Both the position numbers and the translations under genes were made by a program. A stretch of DNA of 15,364 nt from Candidatus Heimdallarchaeota archaeon (lineage in GTDB: Archaea; Asgardarchaeota; Heimdallarchaeia; Heimdallarchaeales; Kariarchaeaceae): the NCBI GenBank assembly GCA_015523565.1, contig WAKA01000077.1, forward strand, positions 1 through 15,364, in the 5' to 3' direction. The stretch's first letter is position 1; each line of letters begins with the position of its first letter. The notes below the pieces were generated by a model. It searched no databases and was not told the DNA's origin. It saw nothing but the letters and a program-made list of their open reading frames with translations. This document shows, piece by piece, positions 758 through 10,677 of this stretch.

Positions 758-1927
758 TTAGAATTCAAGATCACGGATTCTTTGTGCCGCTTCCCGTAAT
801 TTTTCTTCTGAGGCACTACCAAAACTAATTCTGAAGTGATCCTTTCTGCTGTTTCCAAATTCCGAACCGGGAACTGTGACTACTTTTGCTTCTGAAAACA
901 CTTTTTCTGACCAGAATTCACCGGGATTTTCTGCCTCTATATTTTTGACTTTCGGGAATGCATAAAATGATCCTTCAACCTTAGGAACTTCCAATCCATC
1001 TATTTTATTGAATTCATCTTGTGCAACCTTTGCACGTGTCTCCATAGTCTTTCGTAAATGATCCCTGAATTCCCTGTCTTCGTTTGTGCCTATGAATTCT
1101 GCCAAAGCCCACTGCGGAAGGCTTGGTGAATTTGCCATTATAAAAGGATGAAGTTTGGCAATTGGTTCCATAAGTCTTGCTTCACCAATTCCATAGCCTA
1201 ATCTCCAACCAGGGATGCAGTAGGTTTTGCTGAATGAGTTTAGAGTAACTGTGTTTTCAGGCGCATATCTTGCCACTGGTTCGTGTTTCTGTCCATTAAA
1301 GACCATAAATTCATATACTTCATCAGAGAGAATGATGATGTCGTTATCAATGGCGATTTCAGCAATACCTTTCAAAACTTCTTTCTTTTGGATTGATCCA
1401 GTTGGGTTACTTGGACTGTTCATGATTATCATTTTTGTCTTGTCTGTTACAGCTTCATTCACTTTATCAGGAGACATCTGGAAATTGTCATCTAGAGAAA
1501 TATGTATGGGGTTTGCTCCCATGATTAACGGAATTGTAGGATAATACACAAATCCAGGATCTGGAATAATGATTTCGTCACCAGGATCTGTCATTGCCAT
1601 GATAGAGGTAAACATCAGTTGCGTACCTCCAGCAGTAACGACCACCCCATCTGTATTGAAATCTAAATCATAAAGTTCCTTATATTGATTGATTAATTTT
1701 TCCCTAAGCTGTGGAATGCCTGAATTCAGTACATATGAACTTGTCTTCTGTCCAGCAATTTTTGCCATTATCTCCAACAACTTTTCAGGTGGAGGAATAT
1801 CGGGGGCACCGATACCCAATGAAATAACTCCTTCCAATCCTTGAGCCCTCGCAAACATTTTTCTAATTCCAGAAGGAACAATTTGATCAAGTCGATGTGA
1901 TTGCTGATAAATCTTCCTCTCAGTCAC
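758..1927 (-). CDS. Pyridoxal-phosphate-dependent aminotransferase, class I/II (aspartate/aromatic aminotransferase-like)
   Basis: NSPSNPTG, SDEVY, SFSKTYCIPGWRLGY (PLP-binding Lys), GSFYAFP and VPGSEFG...FRISF; 389 aa, GTG start. Substrate cannot be assigned from sequence. Confidence 0.95.
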   Translation of the reverse strand: MTERKIYQQSHRLDQIVPSGIRKMFARAQGLEGVISLGIGAPDIPPPEKLLEIMAKIAGQKTSSYVLNSGIPQLREKLINQYKELYDLDFNTDGVVVTAGGTQLMFTSIMAMTDPGDEIIIPDPGFVYYPTIPLIMGANPIHISLDDNFQMSPDKVNEAVTDKTKMIIMNSPSNPTGSIQKKEVLKGIAEIAIDNDIIILSDEVYEFMVFNGQKHEPVARYAPENTVTLNSFSKTYCIPGWRLGYGIGEARLMEPIAKLHPFIMANSPSLPQWALAEFIGTNEDREFRDHLRKTMETRAKVAQDEFNKIDGLEVPKVEGSFYAFPKVKNIEAENPGEFWSEKVFSEAKVVTVPGSEFGNSRKDHFRISFGSASEEKLREAAQRIRDLEF

Positions 1928-1946
1928 AAGTAAACATGGTCAGGAA

Positions 1947-1955
1947 TTTAAAAAA
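1947..1955 (-). promoter_or_regulatory. Putative TATA box for the aminotransferase gene
   Basis: Minus strand reads TTTTTTAAA, 20-28 nt upstream of the GTG at 1927. Confidence 0.3.
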
Positions 1956-2022
1956 CAAAAAGAAATTCTAGTCAGAGAATGCTTAATTTCTCCATAATTT
2001 TTAACAAATTTTTTTCTTGATT

Positions 2023-2038
2023 CAGAAATATCATAAAA
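2023..2038 (+). promoter_or_regulatory. Putative BRE-TATA promoter for the macrodomain gene
   Basis: CAGAAA (BRE-like) followed by TCATAAAA, 22-29 nt upstream of GTG 2060. Confidence 0.3.
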
Positions 2039-2059
2039 TCTCATTGAATAACATCGCAT

Positions 2060-2602
2060 GTGATTACAAGACATGTTTTTCAAACTGATTTGACACTCAA
2101 AAAAGGGGACATTACTGAGGAAAGCACAGATGCGATAGTAAATGCAGCCAATGAGCACTTGATGCACGGAGGAGGAGTTGCATATGCCATAGCAAAAAAG
2201 GCAGGTTCAATTTTGGAAGAAGAATCAAGAGGAATCGGTTATGTCCCTACAGGATCTGCTGCAATCACCTCTGGTGGAAATCTTCCTGCAAAATACGTGA
2301 TCCATGCGGTTGGACCAGTATGGAGAGGTGGAAAATCCAATGAGCCCCAACTTCTTAGATCCGCAATTCGCTCAAGCTTGGAATTGGCAAAAAAGCATGA
2401 ACTAAAGTCAATAAGTTTTCCTGCCATTTCAACAGGAATTTTTGGTTATCCCTTAAAAAATGCGGCAAGGGAAATGCTGTCAGAAACATTACAATTTTTG
2501 AGGGAAAACCCTGGTGAGCTGAAACTGGTACAATTTGTCCTGTTTACGGATCTTGACTTTGAGACATTTAAACAAGAATTAGTACAACTGATTCCGGAAT
2601 GA
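2060..2602 (+). CDS. Macro domain protein (MacroD/YmdB-like ADP-ribose glycohydrolase / O-acetyl-ADP-ribose deacetylase)
   Basis: GDIT, DAIVNAAN, HGGGVAYAI, VIHAVGP and SISFPAISTGIFGYP are canonical MacroD-type motifs. Confidence 0.95.
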   Translation: MITRHVFQTDLTLKKGDITEESTDAIVNAANEHLMHGGGVAYAIAKKAGSILEEESRGIGYVPTGSAAITSGGNLPAKYVIHAVGPVWRGGKSNEPQLLRSAIRSSLELAKKHELKSISFPAISTGIFGYPLKNAAREMLSETLQFLRENPGELKLVQFVLFTDLDFETFKQELVQLIPE

Positions 2603-2643
2603 CTTGTATATTTACTTTAAAATTGAAACTTTATTGTTTAAAT

Positions 2644-3627
2644 ATGGTAGATCTCAATGCTATCTTTCCATTCATTACAACAACTGTCTCACTCATGTTT
2701 TTCATTGGGGTTTTAGAACAGTACAAAAGGAAAAGGAAAATCCACCAACTAATATGGGCAATTGCCATGTTGCTGTTCTTTTTGACAGCAGGGGCAGAAG
2801 CTCTTGCTATTGCCATTAAATCTTGGAATCCAACCATATTCAAGATATATTATGTTTTGGCGGCTATTCAAGTTCCTTTTATGGGAGGAGGAGTTCTTTA
2901 TCTATTTGCAGAAAGAAATGTCATCAATTCACGGAATTCATGGAAGGCATTTTTGATATTCAGTTTCTTCTGGGGACTTTTTGGGTTTTTATTCAGTACA
3001 AGGGATCCAATTTTCAATACTTTTTTCATTATTGCAATTTTGCTGTCTGCATTGTCAATAATTTATGCAATTTCCCCATCAAAAACTGCTTTCAAACAAT
3101 GGTGGCAAGAAACTTTTGATGGATGGATGTTTGCCCATGTATTTATGGCTGTTTCCCTTCTTGCCTTCATATTGATGGCATACTATGCATTGATAACCCC
3201 TGTCAACCTAGAAATTCTGAAACATGGCGGTGAAGTCTCTGGATTGCCATGGCAAAGCAATCCAAGTGACTTAAGTGAACCAAGGGCTGTCGTAAGATTA
3301 TTTTCTCCTCTTCAAACAGTCCCAGGAGGTGTTGCCTTGATTGGTGGCGGTTTTTACTCATATATTGCATGGCAGAGGTCAATAAAACAAAACACAGGAA
3401 AATACCAGTGGAAAACAGGAATCTATAATATTTATATAGCACTAGGTGCGCTTGTTCTTGCTCAAGGTGCATTTTTTTCGGGATTTGGATTGGGTACACT
3501 GTATATCAGTGAAACAATTTCAGTTACGTTAATGTATTTTGGATTTTTGGAATCCGATAAAATTACAAAGGAACTTCTGCTCAGACCCTTTAAATGGAGA
3601 AAAAATATTACAGCCAGTTCACCCTGA
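2644..3627 (+). CDS. Uncharacterised polytopic membrane protein (about 9 TM segments)
   Basis: ORF is open from 2599; ATG 2644 (MVDLNAIF) is preferred because a TTTAAAA box lies about 22-28 nt upstream. About 9 hydrophobic segments by eye, with a basic loop QYKRKRKIHQ after the first. Confidence 0.8.
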   Translation: MVDLNAIFPFITTTVSLMFFIGVLEQYKRKRKIHQLIWAIAMLLFFLTAGAEALAIAIKSWNPTIFKIYYVLAAIQVPFMGGGVLYLFAERNVINSRNSWKAFLIFSFFWGLFGFLFSTRDPIFNTFFIIAILLSALSIIYAISPSKTAFKQWWQETFDGWMFAHVFMAVSLLAFILMAYYALITPVNLEILKHGGEVSGLPWQSNPSDLSEPRAVVRLFSPLQTVPGGVALIGGGFYSYIAWQRSIKQNTGKYQWKTGIYNIYIALGALVLAQGAFFSGFGLGTLYISETISVTLMYFGFLESDKITKELLLRPFKWRKNITASSP

Positions 3628-4422
3628 ACTATTCCATAATTGTTCAAATAACCAATCAAATTGCTTGACCAACCAAATATTGGTTGAACGAATAATTACG
3701 GAATCCAATGTTGCAGTTTCACCTGAAAGGATTATGTAGAGTATATTATCTAATATGACGAAAGGAACTTCCAGATTTGCATTGAAATTTATATTGAACT
3801 TGATATCACCAGAGAAAAAGAGATCCAACTTTTTGCGCAGGTTCTGTGCAACATGCTCAGTCTTTACCAAATACTTGACTTCAACTTTTTTCCTGAAAAT
3901 ATCGCCCAAAAGTTTTCCACTTTTGCTCCAATCTATCACTGTTTTTCGGGAAGCGGCGGCAATCAAGACTCTCTCATTGACTTGTCTTATATCTTCCAAA
4001 AAATTTTCCTCCCCCACTTCAAATGTTGTAATCATCAAATCCCCAGTTTGACTGCTTGAAAGAGTGTTCTGCCATTTCTTGCTCAGAATTGTCCCCAATT
4101 CAGACATTTTTTCGATTTTTTGTGCAGACCTTACTTGTTCTTTTTCTATAAGAGATTCAATAACCTGCCGTGGATGAATGACCCTATAGGATTTGGGAAG
4201 GTTGCCCCTTTTTTGGTGTTCAATCAACCCATCTAGCTCCATGTTTTTCAAAATTTCATAAATTCTCGACAATGGAATATGGCATGTCTGCTGTAATTGT
4301 TTTACATCCATTTCACCATTTGAAAGCAATGCAGAATAAATTTTCGCGGCATTTTTTGATAGACCCAAAACATGAGACAAGCCTTCCTCTATGGACACAA
4401 GATCAATGACTATTCTCTTCAA
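3619..4422 (-). CDS. TrmB-family transcriptional regulator (N-terminal winged HTH, C-terminal effector-binding domain)
   Basis: LGLSKNAAKIYSALL...IPLSRIYEILKNMELDGLIE...PKSYRVIHP matches the TrmB HTH pattern, followed by a coiled-coil linker and a C-terminal domain ending FEQLWN. The TTG start is uncertain; it lies 2 bp after the PHP stop. Confidence 0.88.
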   Translation of the reverse strand: MKRIVIDLVSIEEGLSHVLGLSKNAAKIYSALLSNGEMDVKQLQQTCHIPLSRIYEILKNMELDGLIEHQKRGNLPKSYRVIHPRQVIESLIEKEQVRSAQKIEKMSELGTILSKKWQNTLSSSQTGDLMITTFEVGEENFLEDIRQVNERVLIAAASRKTVIDWSKSGKLLGDIFRKKVEVKYLVKTEHVAQNLRKKLDLFFSGDIKFNINFNANLEVPFVILDNILYIILSGETATLDSVIIRSTNIWLVKQFDWLFEQLWNSSG

Positions 4423-4424
4423 GA

Positions 4425-5336
4425 TTAAGATTTTGGAAGTATCTGCACTTGAATTCCCACTTTTTCAAAAAATTTCTGGACATGTTCCAAAGGAATTTCC
4501 ATTCCTAAAACACCAACATCCCCATGAAAATCACCCCCTGCTGTAATAACAAGATCCTTATTTCTCTTTGCAATTTCCCAAAGAAATGTACTGCCTTCTT
4601 TTTCAAAGTCAGGGGAAATCTTGTATTTTTGGGTATAATCATAGTATAATTCAAACCCGTCAATCCCATATTTGCGTAAATAACCAGTCACTTCTTTCAA
4701 AGCACTCATGTCTTTCCTTGCATGCAGGGGGTGTGCCCATATGATGATTCCACCAATCCTATGAATTAAATCAATCCATTCTGAAAATTTCAAAGTGAAC
4801 CTTTCAACTGCTAATGGTTTTCCGTCAGCCAAGTAATTGTCAAATGCCTCCTTTAGGTCTTGAACATATCCTTTTTTCACAAGAACCCTTCCTAAATGTG
4901 GTCGTGAGATTACATCCGTTGGCTGTTCATTGTTGTCCCCTGATGCTTCCTTTAGCACCTCTTCAAACGTTACTTCAAATCCAAATTGATTAGCCCTCTC
5001 AATCATTTTCTTCATTCGATAATATCTAGAATTCTGAATTTTATCCAAAACGGAAATCAAATCAGGATGTTGTGCAGTTTGTATGTCTGGAAAAAATGCA
5101 AGCAGGTGTACCTTTTGCCCCAATACCTTTGTGGAAATTTCCATTCCTGCAATCAAGATACCTTCAAACAAGTTATTGGATGAATTCAACTGAAATGCCT
5201 CGACACTTCCTTTCAAATTGTCATGATCCGTAATGGAAAGAATCTTGATGCCTTTCTCATTTGCTTTCCTCAATATTTCCTCAACAGTCCATGTCCCATC
5301 AGAATTTGTGGAATGACAATGTAAATCAATTAACAC
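4425..5336 (-). CDS. PHP-domain metal-dependent phosphoesterase (TrpH/YciV-like)
   Basis: DLHCHSTNSDG, ITDHD, GMEIST, VHLL, RPHLGRVLV, AHP, GIDGFELYY and TAGGDFHG motifs; probably co-transcribed with the TrmB-family gene. Confidence 0.93.
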   Translation of the reverse strand: MLIDLHCHSTNSDGTWTVEEILRKANEKGIKILSITDHDNLKGSVEAFQLNSSNNLFEGILIAGMEISTKVLGQKVHLLAFFPDIQTAQHPDLISVLDKIQNSRYYRMKKMIERANQFGFEVTFEEVLKEASGDNNEQPTDVISRPHLGRVLVKKGYVQDLKEAFDNYLADGKPLAVERFTLKFSEWIDLIHRIGGIIIWAHPLHARKDMSALKEVTGYLRKYGIDGFELYYDYTQKYKISPDFEKEGSTFLWEIAKRNKDLVITAGGDFHGDVGVLGMEIPLEHVQKFFEKVGIQVQILPKS

Positions 5337-5430: not shown

Positions 5431-5796
5431 GTGGAAATAATCAAAAATTACAATGAAGTCAAATGGATTTCAGAAAAAGACCCTGAAGTTATGCAAAAAA
5501 CAATAATTGGAATGGATATCTGCAAGTCCAGCAATATAAGAATCATAAAAATGAGACCTGGAAGAAAAGCCATCCCGCATGGTCATGAGCAACTTCAAGT
5601 CTATTACATTCTACAAGGCAAGGCAAAAGTAAGAATCGAATCAAATATTTATGATGTTGAAGAAAATTTTCGGATAATTATCAAACCGAATCAAATTCAC
5701 TCTGTTGAGGCAATTGGTGATAAAGAACTCATTCTTTTAATTTTTGATGAATTTGACCTTTGTCTAGATTTCAATTCACCCTATGTTGACTATTAA
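5431..5796 (+). CDS. Cupin-domain protein
   Basis: Cupin motif 1 G-x5-HGH-x3-Q-x6-G and motif 2 KPNQIHSV. ORF is open from TTG 5383, but GTG 5431 is a plausible start; the start is uncertain. Confidence 0.8.
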   Translation: MEIIKNYNEVKWISEKDPEVMQKTIIGMDICKSSNIRIIKMRPGRKAIPHGHEQLQVYYILQGKAKVRIESNIYDVEENFRIIIKPNQIHSVEAIGDKELILLIFDEFDLCLDFNSPYVDY

Positions 5797-6731
5797 TTGG
5801 TAATCGTCCCAACCTCATGGACATAAGACATCCGATAATCAAATGCATCTAGTTTTATTAGTTGGGATATTGCAAGAACAATTATTTCTTCCTCCAATTC
5901 ACTGTAATTCAATATTTCATCCTCCAAAATTTCCTGAATGTCTGCCATTGTAAACTTGTCATATTCCTTCAGCTTTTTGGCAATTCTTTTAATGTCATTT
6001 GTATCCAATCCAGGGACTTTCAGATTTGCCTTGCTGTTGATGATTATGTCCATTGACGGCTTATAGGGTATCAATACAGAGGATTTGTCTAAAAGTACCG
6101 CCAATATGTCTTCTTCAGTCTTTGTCAATGGTGAATAACAATTCAAATCAATATATCGCAACACCTCAGGAACCAAATCCACATGTAAATCCGAGGCAAG
6201 TTCCATCGATTTTACAAATGCCTGTATCCAATTCACCATATTTGCAATCAATATTTCATTTTCTTCAGGACTTGATGCGGGCGTCACTTTACATACAATT
6301 GTGTCCAATGGACTTTCAATAGTTATTTGGGTATTGTTCTCAGATGATTCAGCCCTATTCTCCAAAACAAATTTCAATTTGTTTCCCTTTGATTCCAATT
6401 CCAGTCTCGACCATGAATTCCATTTGTGCCTAGTGTTCAATTCCTTGATTTTTCTTGTCGGAATTGGCAAGGCAAAACCTGTAGACTTTTTCTTTTCGAT
6501 ATTTATCACATCATTGGTACGCACATGAAAATTATGGTCAACATAAATTTTGACCCCATGTAAGTCATGTTTATCCTCCCCTGATGTGTGGGTGTCTATA
6601 TAAGAGGCAAGACCATTTGATCCGAGCTCATGTCGATTCAAATGGACTTCTCGATCAATATATACCCTTCTTTTTCTTTTACAATAACCACAAAGGTAAT
6701 GGATTTCTTGTAAGGAGGAGGTATTCATCAT
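5793..6731 (-). CDS. Hypothetical protein with an N-terminal CxxC...H...H putative zinc-binding module and a possible C-terminal helical/winged-helix region
   Basis: 312-aa ORF of normal composition; CGYC...YIDTH...LHGVKIYVDHNFHVR; has its own TATA-like box at 6751-6757. Confidence 0.8.
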   Translation of the reverse strand: MMNTSSLQEIHYLCGYCKRKRRVYIDREVHLNRHELGSNGLASYIDTHTSGEDKHDLHGVKIYVDHNFHVRTNDVINIEKKKSTGFALPIPTRKIKELNTRHKWNSWSRLELESKGNKLKFVLENRAESSENNTQITIESPLDTIVCKVTPASSPEENEILIANMVNWIQAFVKSMELASDLHVDLVPEVLRYIDLNCYSPLTKTEEDILAVLLDKSSVLIPYKPSMDIIINSKANLKVPGLDTNDIKRIAKKLKEYDKFTMADIQEILEDEILNYSELEEEIIVLAISQLIKLDAFDYRMSYVHEVGTITN

Positions 6732-6750
6732 AATAGAATTGAAAAAAACA

Positions 6751-6757
6751 ATATAAA
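6751..6757 (-). promoter_or_regulatory. Putative TATA box for the 312-aa CxxC gene
   Basis: Minus strand reads TTTATAT, 20-26 nt upstream of ATG 6731 and 23-29 nt upstream of the second ATG at 6728. Confidence 0.4.
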
Positions 6758-6855
6758 TGGATTTGTTTTTGAATGAAATTTGGCATAGTCTTGTGGAAAT
6801 TTTATTTGAAAAGATGATTTTGCAAACAAGAGTTTTGAATTAAAATGTATCGAGA

Positions 6856-7466
6856 TTGATGTATGGTGCATTAGTGCATGGTGCATTGATGCATGGTGTA
6901 TGGTGCATTGGTGTATGATGTATTGAAGTATGGTGTATTGGTGGATGGTGTATGGTGTATTGATGCATGGTGTATGGTGCATTGGTGTATTAGTGCATGA
7001 TGTATTGATGCATATGTGTATGAGGTATTGATGCTTGGTGTATGGTACATTGGTGTATTAGTGCATGATGTATTGATGCATATGTGTATGAGGTATTGAT
7101 GCTTGGTGTATGGTACATTGGTGTATTAGTGCATGATGTATGGTGTATTGGTGTATGATGTATTGAAGTATGGTGTATTGGTGGATGGTGTATGGCGTAT
7201 GGTGCATTGATGTGTTGATGCATGGTGCATGATGCATTGGTGCATGGTACATTGACGTATTAGTGTATGGCGTATGGTGCATTGATGTATGGCATATGGT
7301 GCATGATGCATTGGTGTATGGCGTATGGTGCATTGATGTATTGATACATGGTGCATGGTGCATTGGTGCATGGTGCATTGGTGTATTAGTGTATGATGTA
7401 TGGCATATGGTGCATGATGCATTGAAGTATTAGTGTATGGTGCATGGTGCATTGACGTATGGTGTA
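6856..7466. repeat. Intergenic degenerate tandem satellite: 82 contiguous 7/8-bp units, consensus (T)TGGTGYA, with higher-order duplications
   Basis: Manual parse tiles all 611 bp without gaps into 45 heptamers and 37 octamers. An exact 68-bp block occurs at 6982-7049 and 7050-7117 (partial third copy to 7140), and an exact 48-bp block at 6908-6955 and 7148-7195. Confidence 0.97.
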
Positions 7467-7578
7467 TAAGTGCTTAATCAGTGGTCTATGAAATAGAACC
7501 GTTAAATTATTTGTCAAATGTAAAATAATTCTTTAATCTTAGTACATAGTTTGTTTTTGTATACAATTGATTACAAAT

Positions 7579-10500
7579 TCATTCCATTTTTTTTCCTGAT
7601 GTTTTACCATTGATTACTTTCCTTCTGTGGAATGATAGAAGCAGTATTGTAAATGCAAAAGCCATAATCATAATGATATGTTCAATAGGTGAGATTCGTT
7701 TGTTTGAATTTGTTGAAGATGTCTGATCGTCATTATTTTCAGTTGTTGATTCTGTTTTTCCTGAAACGGTTTTTGTAGTTGTCTTGGTTAATGTTATTAT
7801 AGAACTTGATGTGTTTTGCTCTTTTGGAATTTGAATTTGAACTTCATCAGATGGAGATCCTTCACCGAATTCATTTACTGCCCTGACAACATAAAAGTAA
7901 ATATTTCCTGGTTTTACACTTGTATCAACAAAATTTGTTGTGGTAGAAAAGCCGATATAGACATATCCATTTCCTAAAGATCTGTAGACATGATATTCCA
8001 TGATTCCCGATTTTCCTGTAGATAATGGTTCTTCCCATGTTAATACAGCAAATGAATGTTCAATGGAGGTCTCAACATTGATTGGTTTGCTTGGGGTTTT
8101 TGTTTCGTGTGTTTCTGTTTGATTCAATCCAGCATCAATAATTATCCAATTGTATGTTTCAATGATGTATTGTTTATTGAATTGGTTAAATGCAGAAAAA
8201 GTAGTGTTTCCAGCGTCGAATGTTACATTGAATTGAAGGGTTAGGCGGGACCATGTCCATAGCATATAATCATAAAATCGGGTTGACAAAGTCACATATG
8301 AGAACATTCCTTTCATATTGCTTACTGAGCTTATTTTCCAAGAACCAATGGGTTGATTAAATTTTGTAGCATTATAGAACATATATGACATATTTTGAAC
8401 ACTTGACACATTCCAGAAGTTAAGTGGTTGATTGAATGATTTCGCATTATAGAACATATGGGACATATCCTGAACACTTGACACATCCCATGAATTGAGA
8501 GGCTGGTTGAACAAAGTAGCATTTTCAAACATATGGGACATGTTTTTAACAGAGGAAACATCCCATGCATTAATATTTACATTGAAAAGTTGTGTTCCTG
8601 CAAACATGCCAGCCATATTTATAACAAATGATACATTCCATCCACTTATGTCTGAATTAAAAACAGGATTGTTTGCAAACATCCAATCCATTGTTAGAAC
8701 ATAATGAACATTCCAATTGCCAACATCTTGTTGAAATGCAATTGCGCTTTCGAACATGTGATCCATATAATTTACTGAGGAGACATTCCATGATGCTAAT
8801 GGCTGGTTAAATGAGACTGCATTTTGAAACATATAAGACATATCTGTTACAGAAGACACGTCCCATGATGCTAATGGTTGATTAAATGAGACTGCATTTT
8901 GGAACATATACGACATATCTGTCACAGAAGACACGTCCCATGATCCTATATACTGATTGAATGAGGTTGCATTGGCAAACATTGCACCCATTCTGATTAC
9001 AGAAGACACGTCCCATGATGCTAATGGTTGATTAAATGCGATTGCGTTTTGGAACATTTTATCCATATAAACTACAGAAGACACGTCCCATGATCCTATA
9101 GGCTGATTGAATGAGGTTGCATTGGCAAACATTGCATCCATTCTGATTACAGAAGACACATCCCATGACCAAATGGGTTGGTTAAATGAGATTGCGTTTT
9201 GGAACATTTTATCCATATAAACTACAGAAGACACATTCCAAGATCCAATAGGCTGGTTGAATGAAACTGCACCAGCAAACATCTCTCCCATATGAACTAC
9301 AGATGATACATCCCAAGCCCAAATAAGTTGATTGAATGAGATTGCACCTTGAAACATATGTGCCATATTTGTTACTGAAGATACATCCCATATTATGAGG
9401 GATTGGTTGAACGAAACAGCATTTTGAAACATTCCAACCATATTAATTACAGATGAAACCTTCCATCCTCCAATGTGTTGGTTGAACATAGTTGCATTAA
9501 AAAACATTTGAGACATATCTGTTACAGAAGACGTATCCCAAGACCCAATAGGTTGGTTGAATGACTTTGCATTAAAGAACATTGCGTACATGTTGGTTAC
9601 AGAAGACGTATCCCAAGATCCAATAGGTTGGTTGAATGAAGTTGCACCAAAGAACATGGAAGACATATCTGTTACAGAAGATACATCCCATGAACCAATG
9701 GACTGGTTGAAGGAGGTAGCATATTGAAACATATAACTCATATCCGTGACAGAGGATACATCCCACGAGCTTATGTCTTGGTTGAAAGATTTTGCTCCTG
9801 CAAACATAGACGACATATCTGTCACAGAAGATACATCCCATGAACTAATTGATAGATTGAAAGATTTTGCTCCTGCAAACATGGAAGACATGTCAGTTAC
9901 AGATGATACATCCCAAGATTCTATATTTCCTTGATTTCCCCAATTTTTTACATTTCTAAACATGCCTGATAAATCTGTTGTTCCATTAAGATCCAAGGGG
10001 TCAGTTGCAGTAATAATAAGGTTTTCTGCATTTTCAAAATAATGTCCACGATTCCCCAACTTTAAGTTTCCCCATTGCGATATTTCAATAATTTTAAGAG
10101 AACTTGAAAACCCATAATTACTATAAAAAAAGTTCCATCCAATAATTGTACCTGTAATAACAAGTGTATAAATTCCTGGAGAAGCATATGTATGTGAAAT
10201 TTCACGGGAGTTGTATGTTGTAATTGTAGAACTTGTACCATCGCCCCAATCAACAACAAAGTTATATGTTCCATCAGAGACTAAGGGCAGTTTAATATTG
10301 TTTTCACCCAAGTGAAATCTGTTTCTAACAAAACTTGTGTTCCAAGTAGAAACAAATGCCCCTGCTGGATATGTGACAACAGTTTTCTGGTTTTTATTTT
10401 TCTGTTCCTGTCTCTTTACTAATTCTTTTGTGGTTTCTTTTGTATGGCTCCTTGAATTCAAAATATTTTCTTTTGAATGTGAATGCTCAAAATTCAGATT

Positions 10501-10677
10501 GTGAATGACAGAGTTCCTTTCAACGAAAGAGGAACTTTGTTCTGAAAATGAAAGATGCCGCTTATCTGAAGATTGAAAATTCAATTTATATTCAGCTTGG
10601 TTATTTATCGGTCTACTATGTAATGGAAATATAAGTAGACCAATAGTCAAAATCAAAATTAATTTGTTCATGCCCAT
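7579..10677 (-). CDS. BspA/DUF285-type repeat surface protein: signal peptide, PKD-like domain, 25-aa repeats, fibronectin type III domain, Ser/Thr linker, C-terminal membrane anchor
   Basis: N-terminal [16 protein letters not shown]; [10 protein letters not shown]...HTYASPGIY (PKD-like); [25 protein letters not shown] repeats; LTWEEP...YHVYR...[14 protein letters not shown] (FN3); hydrophobic tail followed by HRRK. The second ATG (10671) may be the true start. Confidence 0.93.
8341..9915 (-). repeat. Intragenic coding tandem repeat, 21 x 75 bp (25 aa), plus a partial 22nd unit
   Basis: Trp codons recur at a 75-bp period from 9915 to 8340; all 21 units are 25 aa, with no indels. Confidence 0.95.

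Follow-up and report, generated by a model that had tools for sequence, protein, structure and literature searches.

Arrays of heptamer repeats are a long-standing and unexplained feature of some bacteria. In the summary given by PMC4679880, Mrazek et al. (2007) observed that repeats with heptanucleotide units are the most frequent long simple-sequence repeats in prokaryotes, and linked this to polymerase slippage. Described examples include the cyanobacterial STRR repeats with the unit GGGGA(T/C)T and the GGGAATC repeats of Xanthomonas (PMC4692102), and the TAACTGA repeats of Beggiatoaceae (PMC4679880). These LSSR/STRR arrays occur at tens to hundreds of dispersed loci, with 2–30 units, and in two related species of Xanthomonas the long arrays do not lie beside the same genes (PMC4692102). 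The best-studied case in which contiguous 7-bp units, direct or inverted, serve for protein loading is the parS/operator of pSM19035, whose heptads are bound by the ribbon-helix-helix protein omega (ParB) (PMC9499535, PMC2441792). Its arrays consist of 7–10 heptads with the sequence WATCACW, tolerate no gaps, and lie beside the genes for the binding protein and a ParA ATPase. In archaea, most of the satellites reported by Subirana and Messeguer (2019; PMC6749651) are from the Methanosarcina class, and many are coding repeats. Non-coding tandem arrays like the one described here do occur in archaeal chromosomes in their survey, most of them short, but the survey was made on complete reference genomes and left out Asgard archaea. 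The paper on circular Heimdallarchaeum genomes reports as tandem repeats only CRISPR and intragenic ones, and the literature that we searched describes no Asgard array of the present kind.

The DNA that we analyzed (the window, 15,364 bp) is the entire contig C77 of a 3.57-Mb, 233-contig Asgard MAG of the Heimdall group (G000) that is about 90% complete. An initial annotation, made from the letters alone, had judged the genome to be probably archaeal, and both this placement and the gene content of the contig (a TrmB-family regulator at 3619–4422, F420H2-dependent reductase-like, NosD/beta-helix and DUF285 surface-type proteins) bear this out. It had also placed a satellite array in the largest intergenic gap of the window, and that gap (6732–7578) is indeed 847 bp long, the runners-up being 189 and 107 bp. 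The features of the locus are as follows:

5793–6731, minus strand: gene for a 312-aa protein, the first gene of a conserved block, with its start 124 bp beyond the array.

6750–6765, minus strand: likely BRE/TATA promoter element of the 312-aa gene, CAAATCCATTTATATT, about 20–35 nt before the ATG.

6856–7466, no strand assigned: satellite array, with plus-strand consensus TGGTGYA / TTGRTGYA, reading TRCAYYA(A) on the minus strand.

6982–7140, no strand assigned: exact 68-bp (nine-unit) tandem duplication, 6982–7049 being identical to 7050–7117, after which a third copy begins and breaks off after 23 bp (7118–7140).

7186–7403, no strand assigned: 126-bp higher-order repeat, in which 7186–7277 and 7312–7403 are 91% identical.

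7579–10677, minus strand: gene for a 1032-aa surface-type protein with DUF285 and fn3 repeats, whose stop codon is 112 bp from the array.

The minus strand is thus the strand of both genes that adjoin the array, and the array ends approximately 90 bp upstream of the putative BRE/TATA element. Dynamic-programming tiling reproduced exactly the structure that had been annotated: 82 head-to-tail units, 45 of them 7 bp and 37 of them 8 bp long, fill positions 6856–7466 (611 bp) with sharp borders, although the exact copy number is insecure because it comes from short-read assemblies only. There are never more than two octamers in a row, and the longest run of heptamers is four. The units abut without spacers, so we rejected a CRISPR array. 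Each unit contains an R-T-G-Y-A-T hexamer with TGCA or TGTA at its center, followed by one or two spacer bases, and the purine/pyrimidine pattern YRRYRYR is retained in 71 of the 82 units. The most frequent unit types are TGGTGCA (15 copies), TGGTGTA (11), TTGGTGTA (7), TGATGTA (6) and TTGATGCA (5). The plus strand is G/T-rich and C-poor, as annotated (A125 C42 G208 T236), with GC skew reaching +0.73. Nor is the array a chance feature, given 82 units over 611 bp and the absence of any match to a reversed control pattern in the genome.

The description of the two unit lengths as irregularly mixed holds for the mixing but not for a random order. Heptamers and octamers alternate more than in shuffled orders (more runs, P ~0.003), and the absence of three successive octamers is also improbable among shuffles (P ~0.0006), both values being inflated by duplications of blocks within the array. 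Tandem Repeats Finder (TRF) detects periods of 15, 22, 37 and 126 bp, so an alternation of 7 and 8 bp with higher-order blocks fits the array better than a random mixture does. We regard the 68-bp duplication as a recent block amplification.

The array is present in three independent assemblies of this species, two of which we found by exact look-up of the 312-aa protein. The first of these (L285) is 99.96% identical to the window over 5.2 kb, and its contig starts inside the array. The second (L286) spans the array, which in this assembly is 668 bp long and has 90 units (52 of 7 bp and 38 of 8 bp) between flanks that are 98.5% identical to those in the window. Relative to the window, L286 has an insertion of 17 units, which includes unit variants absent from the window, and lacks nine other units, while the remaining 73 units are identical; these block differences, too, rest on short-read assemblies. 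From L285 and L286 we conclude that independent assemblies recover the array and that the differences between them come in blocks.

An assembly artefact or a coding repeat would be a very improbable account of these data. Short-read assemblies do handle repeats badly, and contigs break at the array (in practical terms, it fragments short-read assemblies of these MAGs), but arrays occur at this locus in three assemblies of this species and in three other lineages, and six independent assemblies show one. Similarly, the minus strand has open frames of 77–108 aa across the array, but these exist only because the C/A-rich strand has no stop codons, and the mixture of 7- and 8-bp units shifts the frame. 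In the other assemblies, the listed gene calls leave the array free of genes, in agreement with the initial annotation that it is non-coding.

In several respects the array resembles the LSSR/STRR arrays of bacteria. It consists of head-to-tail, strand-asymmetric 7-bp units with heterogeneous variants; a unit in the 5–11 nt range is repeated far beyond chance expectation; and its position is intergenic and non-coding, with length variation in the form of arrangement differences at the strain level (82 versus 90 units). It differs from them in being archaeal, in having higher-order repeats and an alternation of 7 and 8 bp, in its 82–90 units, in being retained at one position across four lineages (see below), and in occupying one locus per genome, whereas in Nostoc, Xanthomonas, Beggiatoaceae and Bacteroidales many arrays of the same motif are dispersed. 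We found no second array in the 3.57-Mb assembly by a motif scan, by genome-wide TRF or by a scan of 6-mer vocabulary. In the related genomes G001 and G002 there is also a single array locus, although the three genomes are 82–90% complete and could have unassembled copies.

The only other stretches in G000 that are even loosely related in vocabulary are on contigs C36 (1–470) and C59 (about 3750–4203, minus strand), which rank next after the satellite in shared 6-mers. Both are non-coding, G/T-rich, C-poor and full of TGTATTG-type words. Over their first 130 bp they share 86% identity, and one of the two is at a contig end. A small dispersed element is one possible explanation for them, decayed repeat DNA another. 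Directly after the stretch on C36 there is a tandem array (475–685) with 8.6 copies of a 25-bp unit, ATAGTGCATGTGCAAGAGGGATGCA, which includes the words GTGCAT and GATGCA of the satellite.

We searched for relatives of the array with a three-unit pattern of TRCAYNA, allowing optional single-base gaps, in 47 genomes of the order and 400 genomes of the phylum. Clustered matches were found in three genomes only (G000, G001 and G002), all from one genus. Among the 400 Asgard genomes, 11 others have one or two isolated matches each, which is the level seen with the reversed-pattern control; we inspected one of these matches, and its surroundings are densely packed, apparently coding, and free of any array. 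Arrays were seen in none of about 396 further Asgard genomes. At the locus of the 312-aa gene, the other members of the genus have the following arrangements:

G001 species: the contig begins within the array, and the array ends 203 bp before the ortholog (68% identical).

L289, a second assembly of the G001 species: at least 225 bp, with 32 contiguous pure heptamers of TGCACAA/TACACAA, cut by the contig end.

G002: a patchy and decayed array of approximately 330 bp with the heptamers TGCACAA, TGCATGA and TGCATAA, separated from the ortholog by 2.4 kb.

L287 and L288, Logan contigs (protein 66% identical): two decayed patches in a 990-bp spacer, approximately 354 bp before the ATG.

G003, the fifth congener (10 contigs, 93% complete): rearranged local gene order around the ortholog, and no array up to 30 kb from it.

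G003 also has no match to the pattern anywhere in its genome. A maximum-likelihood tree made from the 312-aa protein as a single gene unites the four array-bearing lineages in a clade (support 86/93) that excludes G003. The protein is 58–69% identical between these lineages, and the block from the 312-aa gene to the aminotransferase (in the order 312-aa, cupin, PHP, TrmB, 342-aa, Macro, aminotransferase) is conserved in all four. On the distal side of the array the neighbor is different in each of them: DUF285, an acetyl-CoA synthetase, or SDR, queuosine-synthesis and PALP enzymes. In G002, the SDR and queuosine-synthesis-like genes lie between the array and the ortholog, with the PALP enzyme beyond. 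In L287/L288 the spacer is shared with a divergent acetyl-CoA synthetase gene, and the first of the two patches has the inverted orientation with respect to the gene. Depending on the lineage, 124, 203, about 354 or about 2400 bp separate the array from the ATG of the 312-aa gene. Between the spacers of different lineages only two things can be aligned: the arrays, and a promoter-like sequence, CAAATC[CA]ATTTATA, about 20–35 nt before the ATG. The motif in the relatives (TGCACAA type) differs from that in this species, and a TGCA/TRCA core every 7–8 bp is common to all the array lineages. The initial annotation had held that a single, non-conserved locus would speak against a functional element; the locus is single in each genome, yet arrays are present at it in three relatives.

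In another genus of the family there is a C/A-rich non-coding stretch at a contig end (G007, contig C48, 60–440; L002), with scattered TACACCA/ATACACCAC words beside a type-2 IPP isomerase-like gene. We rejected it as a counterpart of the array because it is at a different locus, and the orthologous site in G000 has no such stretch.

On balance we favor, with moderate confidence, the interpretation that the element is non-coding satellite DNA of the prokaryotic heptanucleotide repeat kind, kept mainly by slippage and unequal recombination. Our best reading is that it is an archaeal variant of these known repeats, confined to a single locus, unusually long and positionally persistent. The 68-bp duplication, the 126-bp repeat, the variable distance to the promoter and the differing distal genes are all consistent with slippage and unequal recombination in a spacer that is prone to rearrangement, and we infer that these are the mechanisms by which the array changes. 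A TGCA-centered heptamer array was probably present in the common ancestor of the four lineages, at the boundary of the conserved block, and slippage and unequal recombination would then have expanded, homogenized, shuffled, inverted and eroded it. Under this scheme, the sixth position of the unit would have changed, so that it is R in three lineages and Y in this species; about half of the units in this species would have gained an extra base, giving the alternation of 7 and 8 bp; and blocks of 9–17 units would have been duplicated or lost. The copy in one lineage would have been inverted, those in two lineages would have been eroded into patches, and the distance between array and promoter would have drifted from 124 bp to 2.4 kb. 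The array would persist mainly by regrowing where it does little harm, not through any need for it by a protein or an RNA, and any effect on the cell may be indirect–for example, by acting as a spacer or insulator for the 312-aa gene's promoter, or by making the intergenic region liable to rearrange. The proposal in the initial annotation that the array is a functional element rather than the outcome of neutral slippage is thus not supported, since block insertions, deletions and duplications, decay in two lineages, inversion in one and a variable promoter distance are the behavior of a satellite. With one locus per genome that can be traced through four lineages, and with growth, motif replacement, inversion and decay all visible, the situation is simpler than in the bacterial cases and offers a clean natural series in which to study the origin and persistence of satellite DNA within a compact prokaryotic genome.

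Three points favor something more than neutral turnover: the persistence of the array at one locus, the presence of one array per genome, and the retention of the TRCA core. The array has kept its place while the neighboring protein diverged to 58–69% identity and alignment was lost over the rest of the spacer; in genomes with a deletion bias, a purely neutral repeat might be expected to disappear sooner. The presence of exactly one array in each genome is equally what one would expect of a dedicated chromosomal site. Because the arrays of Xanthomonas are not at shared genes (PMC4692102), the positional conservation seen here is unusual for the class.

These points would be explained if the array were a protein-loading site, in which a dimeric protein coats the TGCA-centered cores, making it an upstream regulatory or insulating element of the conserved gene block or a single centromere-like or chromatin-organizing landmark on the chromosome. 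We consider this rather unlikely overall. In its favor, the TRCA core has been retained while other positions changed, and the inverted patch in L287 would present the same sites because the core is palindromic. By analogy with parS of pSM19035, contiguous 7-bp heptads are a proven geometry for protein binding (PMC9499535), but that system needs at least four heptads without gaps, and our array has irregular 7/8 spacing with at most four heptamers in a row, a different motif and 82 units (the G001 species has 32 contiguous heptamers). Similarly, decay into patches in two lineages and a promoter distance of anything from 124 to 2400 bp speak against a loading site, and in the remainder of the genome the core words occur at ordinary frequency. 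Genes for ParA, SegAB, SMC or reverse transcriptase, for which the initial annotation had advised a search, and for RHH proteins are absent from the 15-kb contig in Pfam searches with the ten main ORFs, so that no binding-protein gene with a ParA-type ATPase gene lies beside the array as it does in pSM19035; NCBIfam scans covered four ORFs, two of which are among those ten.

A candidate binding protein encoded next to the array is the 312-aa protein, whose structural model has moderate confidence (pLDDT 77). In this model, residues 218–303 at the C-terminus weakly resemble a winged helix, but at Z 5–6 the resemblance is below the tool's own noise level. The protein matches no Pfam or NCBIfam family and no PDB structure in a Foldseek search. 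With a sub-threshold resemblance and no family match, we do not assign it the role of a DNA-binding partner of the array. In its narrowest form, as a dedicated single-copy site of this Heimdall-group genus where a dimeric protein on TGCA cores spaced every 7–8 bp forms a centromere-like or chromatin-organizing landmark, the protein-loading proposal is decidedly improbable. If it were true, sequence would turn over fast at the landmark while position and repeat architecture persist, as in eukaryotic centromeric satellites. Discovery of a binding protein or of a transcript would turn the locus into a candidate landmark of an archaeal chromosome that evolves in the manner of a satellite; as the evidence stands, the array is more likely to be a by-product of slippage. 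We also considered a restriction-site decoy or avoidance of the words of the array and rejected it, because the core hexamers occur at 0.90–1.10 of expectation genome-wide.

The 312-aa protein belongs to a family without a name, with several paralogs per genome in the order. The protein has an N-terminal beta-rich domain, in which His, Asn and Asp residues are invariant, then a disordered linker (residues 79–101) and the winged-helix-like C-terminus. In three genomes (G004 contig C40, G005 contig C357 and G006 contig C283), the matches, which comprise orthologs and a paralog of the 312-aa gene, each have a single TAG in frame, for which a sequencing or frameshift problem, two separate genes or a read-through codon are possible explanations.

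With a conserved promoter element approximately 90 bp downstream of it and a gene for a surface-type protein ending 112 bp upstream, the array brings to mind a contingency element, whose length, altered by slippage, would change transcription of the 312-aa gene or read-through from the DUF285 gene and so create heritable variation in expression. In bacteria, simple-sequence repeats near promoters drive phase variation (PMC4679880, PMC4692102), and the length and block content of our array do vary between assemblies of the species. However, the array is far longer than known phase-variation tracts, its differences are blocks of 60–130 bp and not single units, it lies outside the core promoter and any reading frame, and in G002 it is 2.4 kb from the gene. 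We think that there is little chance that it acts in this way. The DUF285 gene has a tandem repeat of its own: approximately 15 copies of a 75-bp (25-aa) coding unit at 8772–9919 of the window (also at 8351–8541), in a protein for which Pfam reports ten DUF285 stretches and an fn3 domain.

Folding predictions raise another possibility, namely that the G/U-rich plus strand is transcribed into a non-coding RNA whose long wobble-paired hairpins would let it act as a protein sponge or in the manner of a structured or antisense RNA. The plus strand is predicted to fold at −244 kcal/mol (z = −10.8 relative to shuffles) while the C/A strand is predicted to be unstructured (z = +1.4), and the array of the G001 species shows a like asymmetry (z = −6.3 and +3.4). 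Variation among units consists mostly of transitions, which preserve G-U or A-U pairing: counted by cells, deviations from TGGTGTA comprise 84 transitions and 13 transversions. Counted by distinct unit type, by hand from the unit list, the ratio is about 23:6, which is not clearly beyond an ordinary 2:1 mutation bias. Folding is moreover automatic for a TGCA-centered unit with flanking G/T, we saw no covariation, and the A at the fifth position of the unit faces C in four of six units. The orientation of the array relative to its neighboring genes flips in L287, and there is no conserved promoter for the plus strand. Rfam has no match at the gathering score in the window, which also has no tRNA or tmRNA, and scans for sigma-70-type promoters and intrinsic terminators gave only chance-level results. 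An RNA function is therefore improbable in our judgment. Single-stranded DNA hairpins were rejected as a driver of slippage, since neither strand, as DNA, folds better than its shuffles.

The initial annotation had also drawn an analogy between this irregular G/T-strand repeat and telomeres, and had raised templated repeat addition, in which a reverse transcriptase would add units one by one. We reject this reading, which has almost no probability left, because unique sequence (archaeal genes) flanks the array on both sides in two assemblies, the window and L286. An internal array that changes by blocks of 9–17 units, with an exact 68-bp duplication and higher-order repeats, is not what terminal addition would produce, and the contig has no reverse transcriptase. 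The heptamers of TGGTGTA type do grade into TTTAGGG arrays in environmental contigs, but the resemblance of our array to TTTAGGG is 5/7 after rotation, which is not significant, and we do not accept homology to eukaryotic telomere repeats on that basis. The array does share with eukaryotic satellite or subtelomeric heptamer arrays its higher-order repeats, concerted change of units between lineages and block indels. It differs from them in being 0.6 kb long, internal and flanked by archaeal genes, and the likeness is one of sequence style only.

Units almost identical to those of the array are frequent in unrelated organisms. A scan with one genome per species found at least 120 such loci in unrelated bacteria, with arrays of 30–216 bp; among the 80 loci listed, most are from Bacteroidales, Nitrospirae, Chloroflexi and Clostridia, and the units GCACAAT, TAATGCA and GGTGCAT occur in these groups and in Histophilus among the matches listed. 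Because such units are frequent in unrelated bacteria and in environmental contigs, we conclude that these motifs arise repeatedly and independently, and similarity of units is no sign of homology.

Some of these matches merit individual mention. Histophilus somni DSM 23850 (L052; NZ_JACHGQ010000004.1, 820–883) has nine perfect copies of GGTGCAT, which is the commonest unit of our array; in this host-adapted bacterium it may be a phase-variation tract. In the environmental contig L176 (Ga0075108_10013261, 200–700), there is a gradient from TTTAGGG, the plant-type telomere unit, through TTTATGG to TGTATGG/TGCATGG. Its source is probably a eukaryotic alga, and contigs with such gradients look like eukaryotic subtelomeres; this one illustrates how units of TGGTGTA type can derive from telomere repeats. 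Lastly, two contigs that, to judge by their record names, come from termite gut samples have arrays of 0.9–2 kb made of TACACCA/TGCACCA/TGTACCA units: L173 (JGI20166J26741_11661541, 1332–3375) and L226 (Ga0268261_10016408, 4149–5066), the latter 72% identical to the satellite by BLAST.
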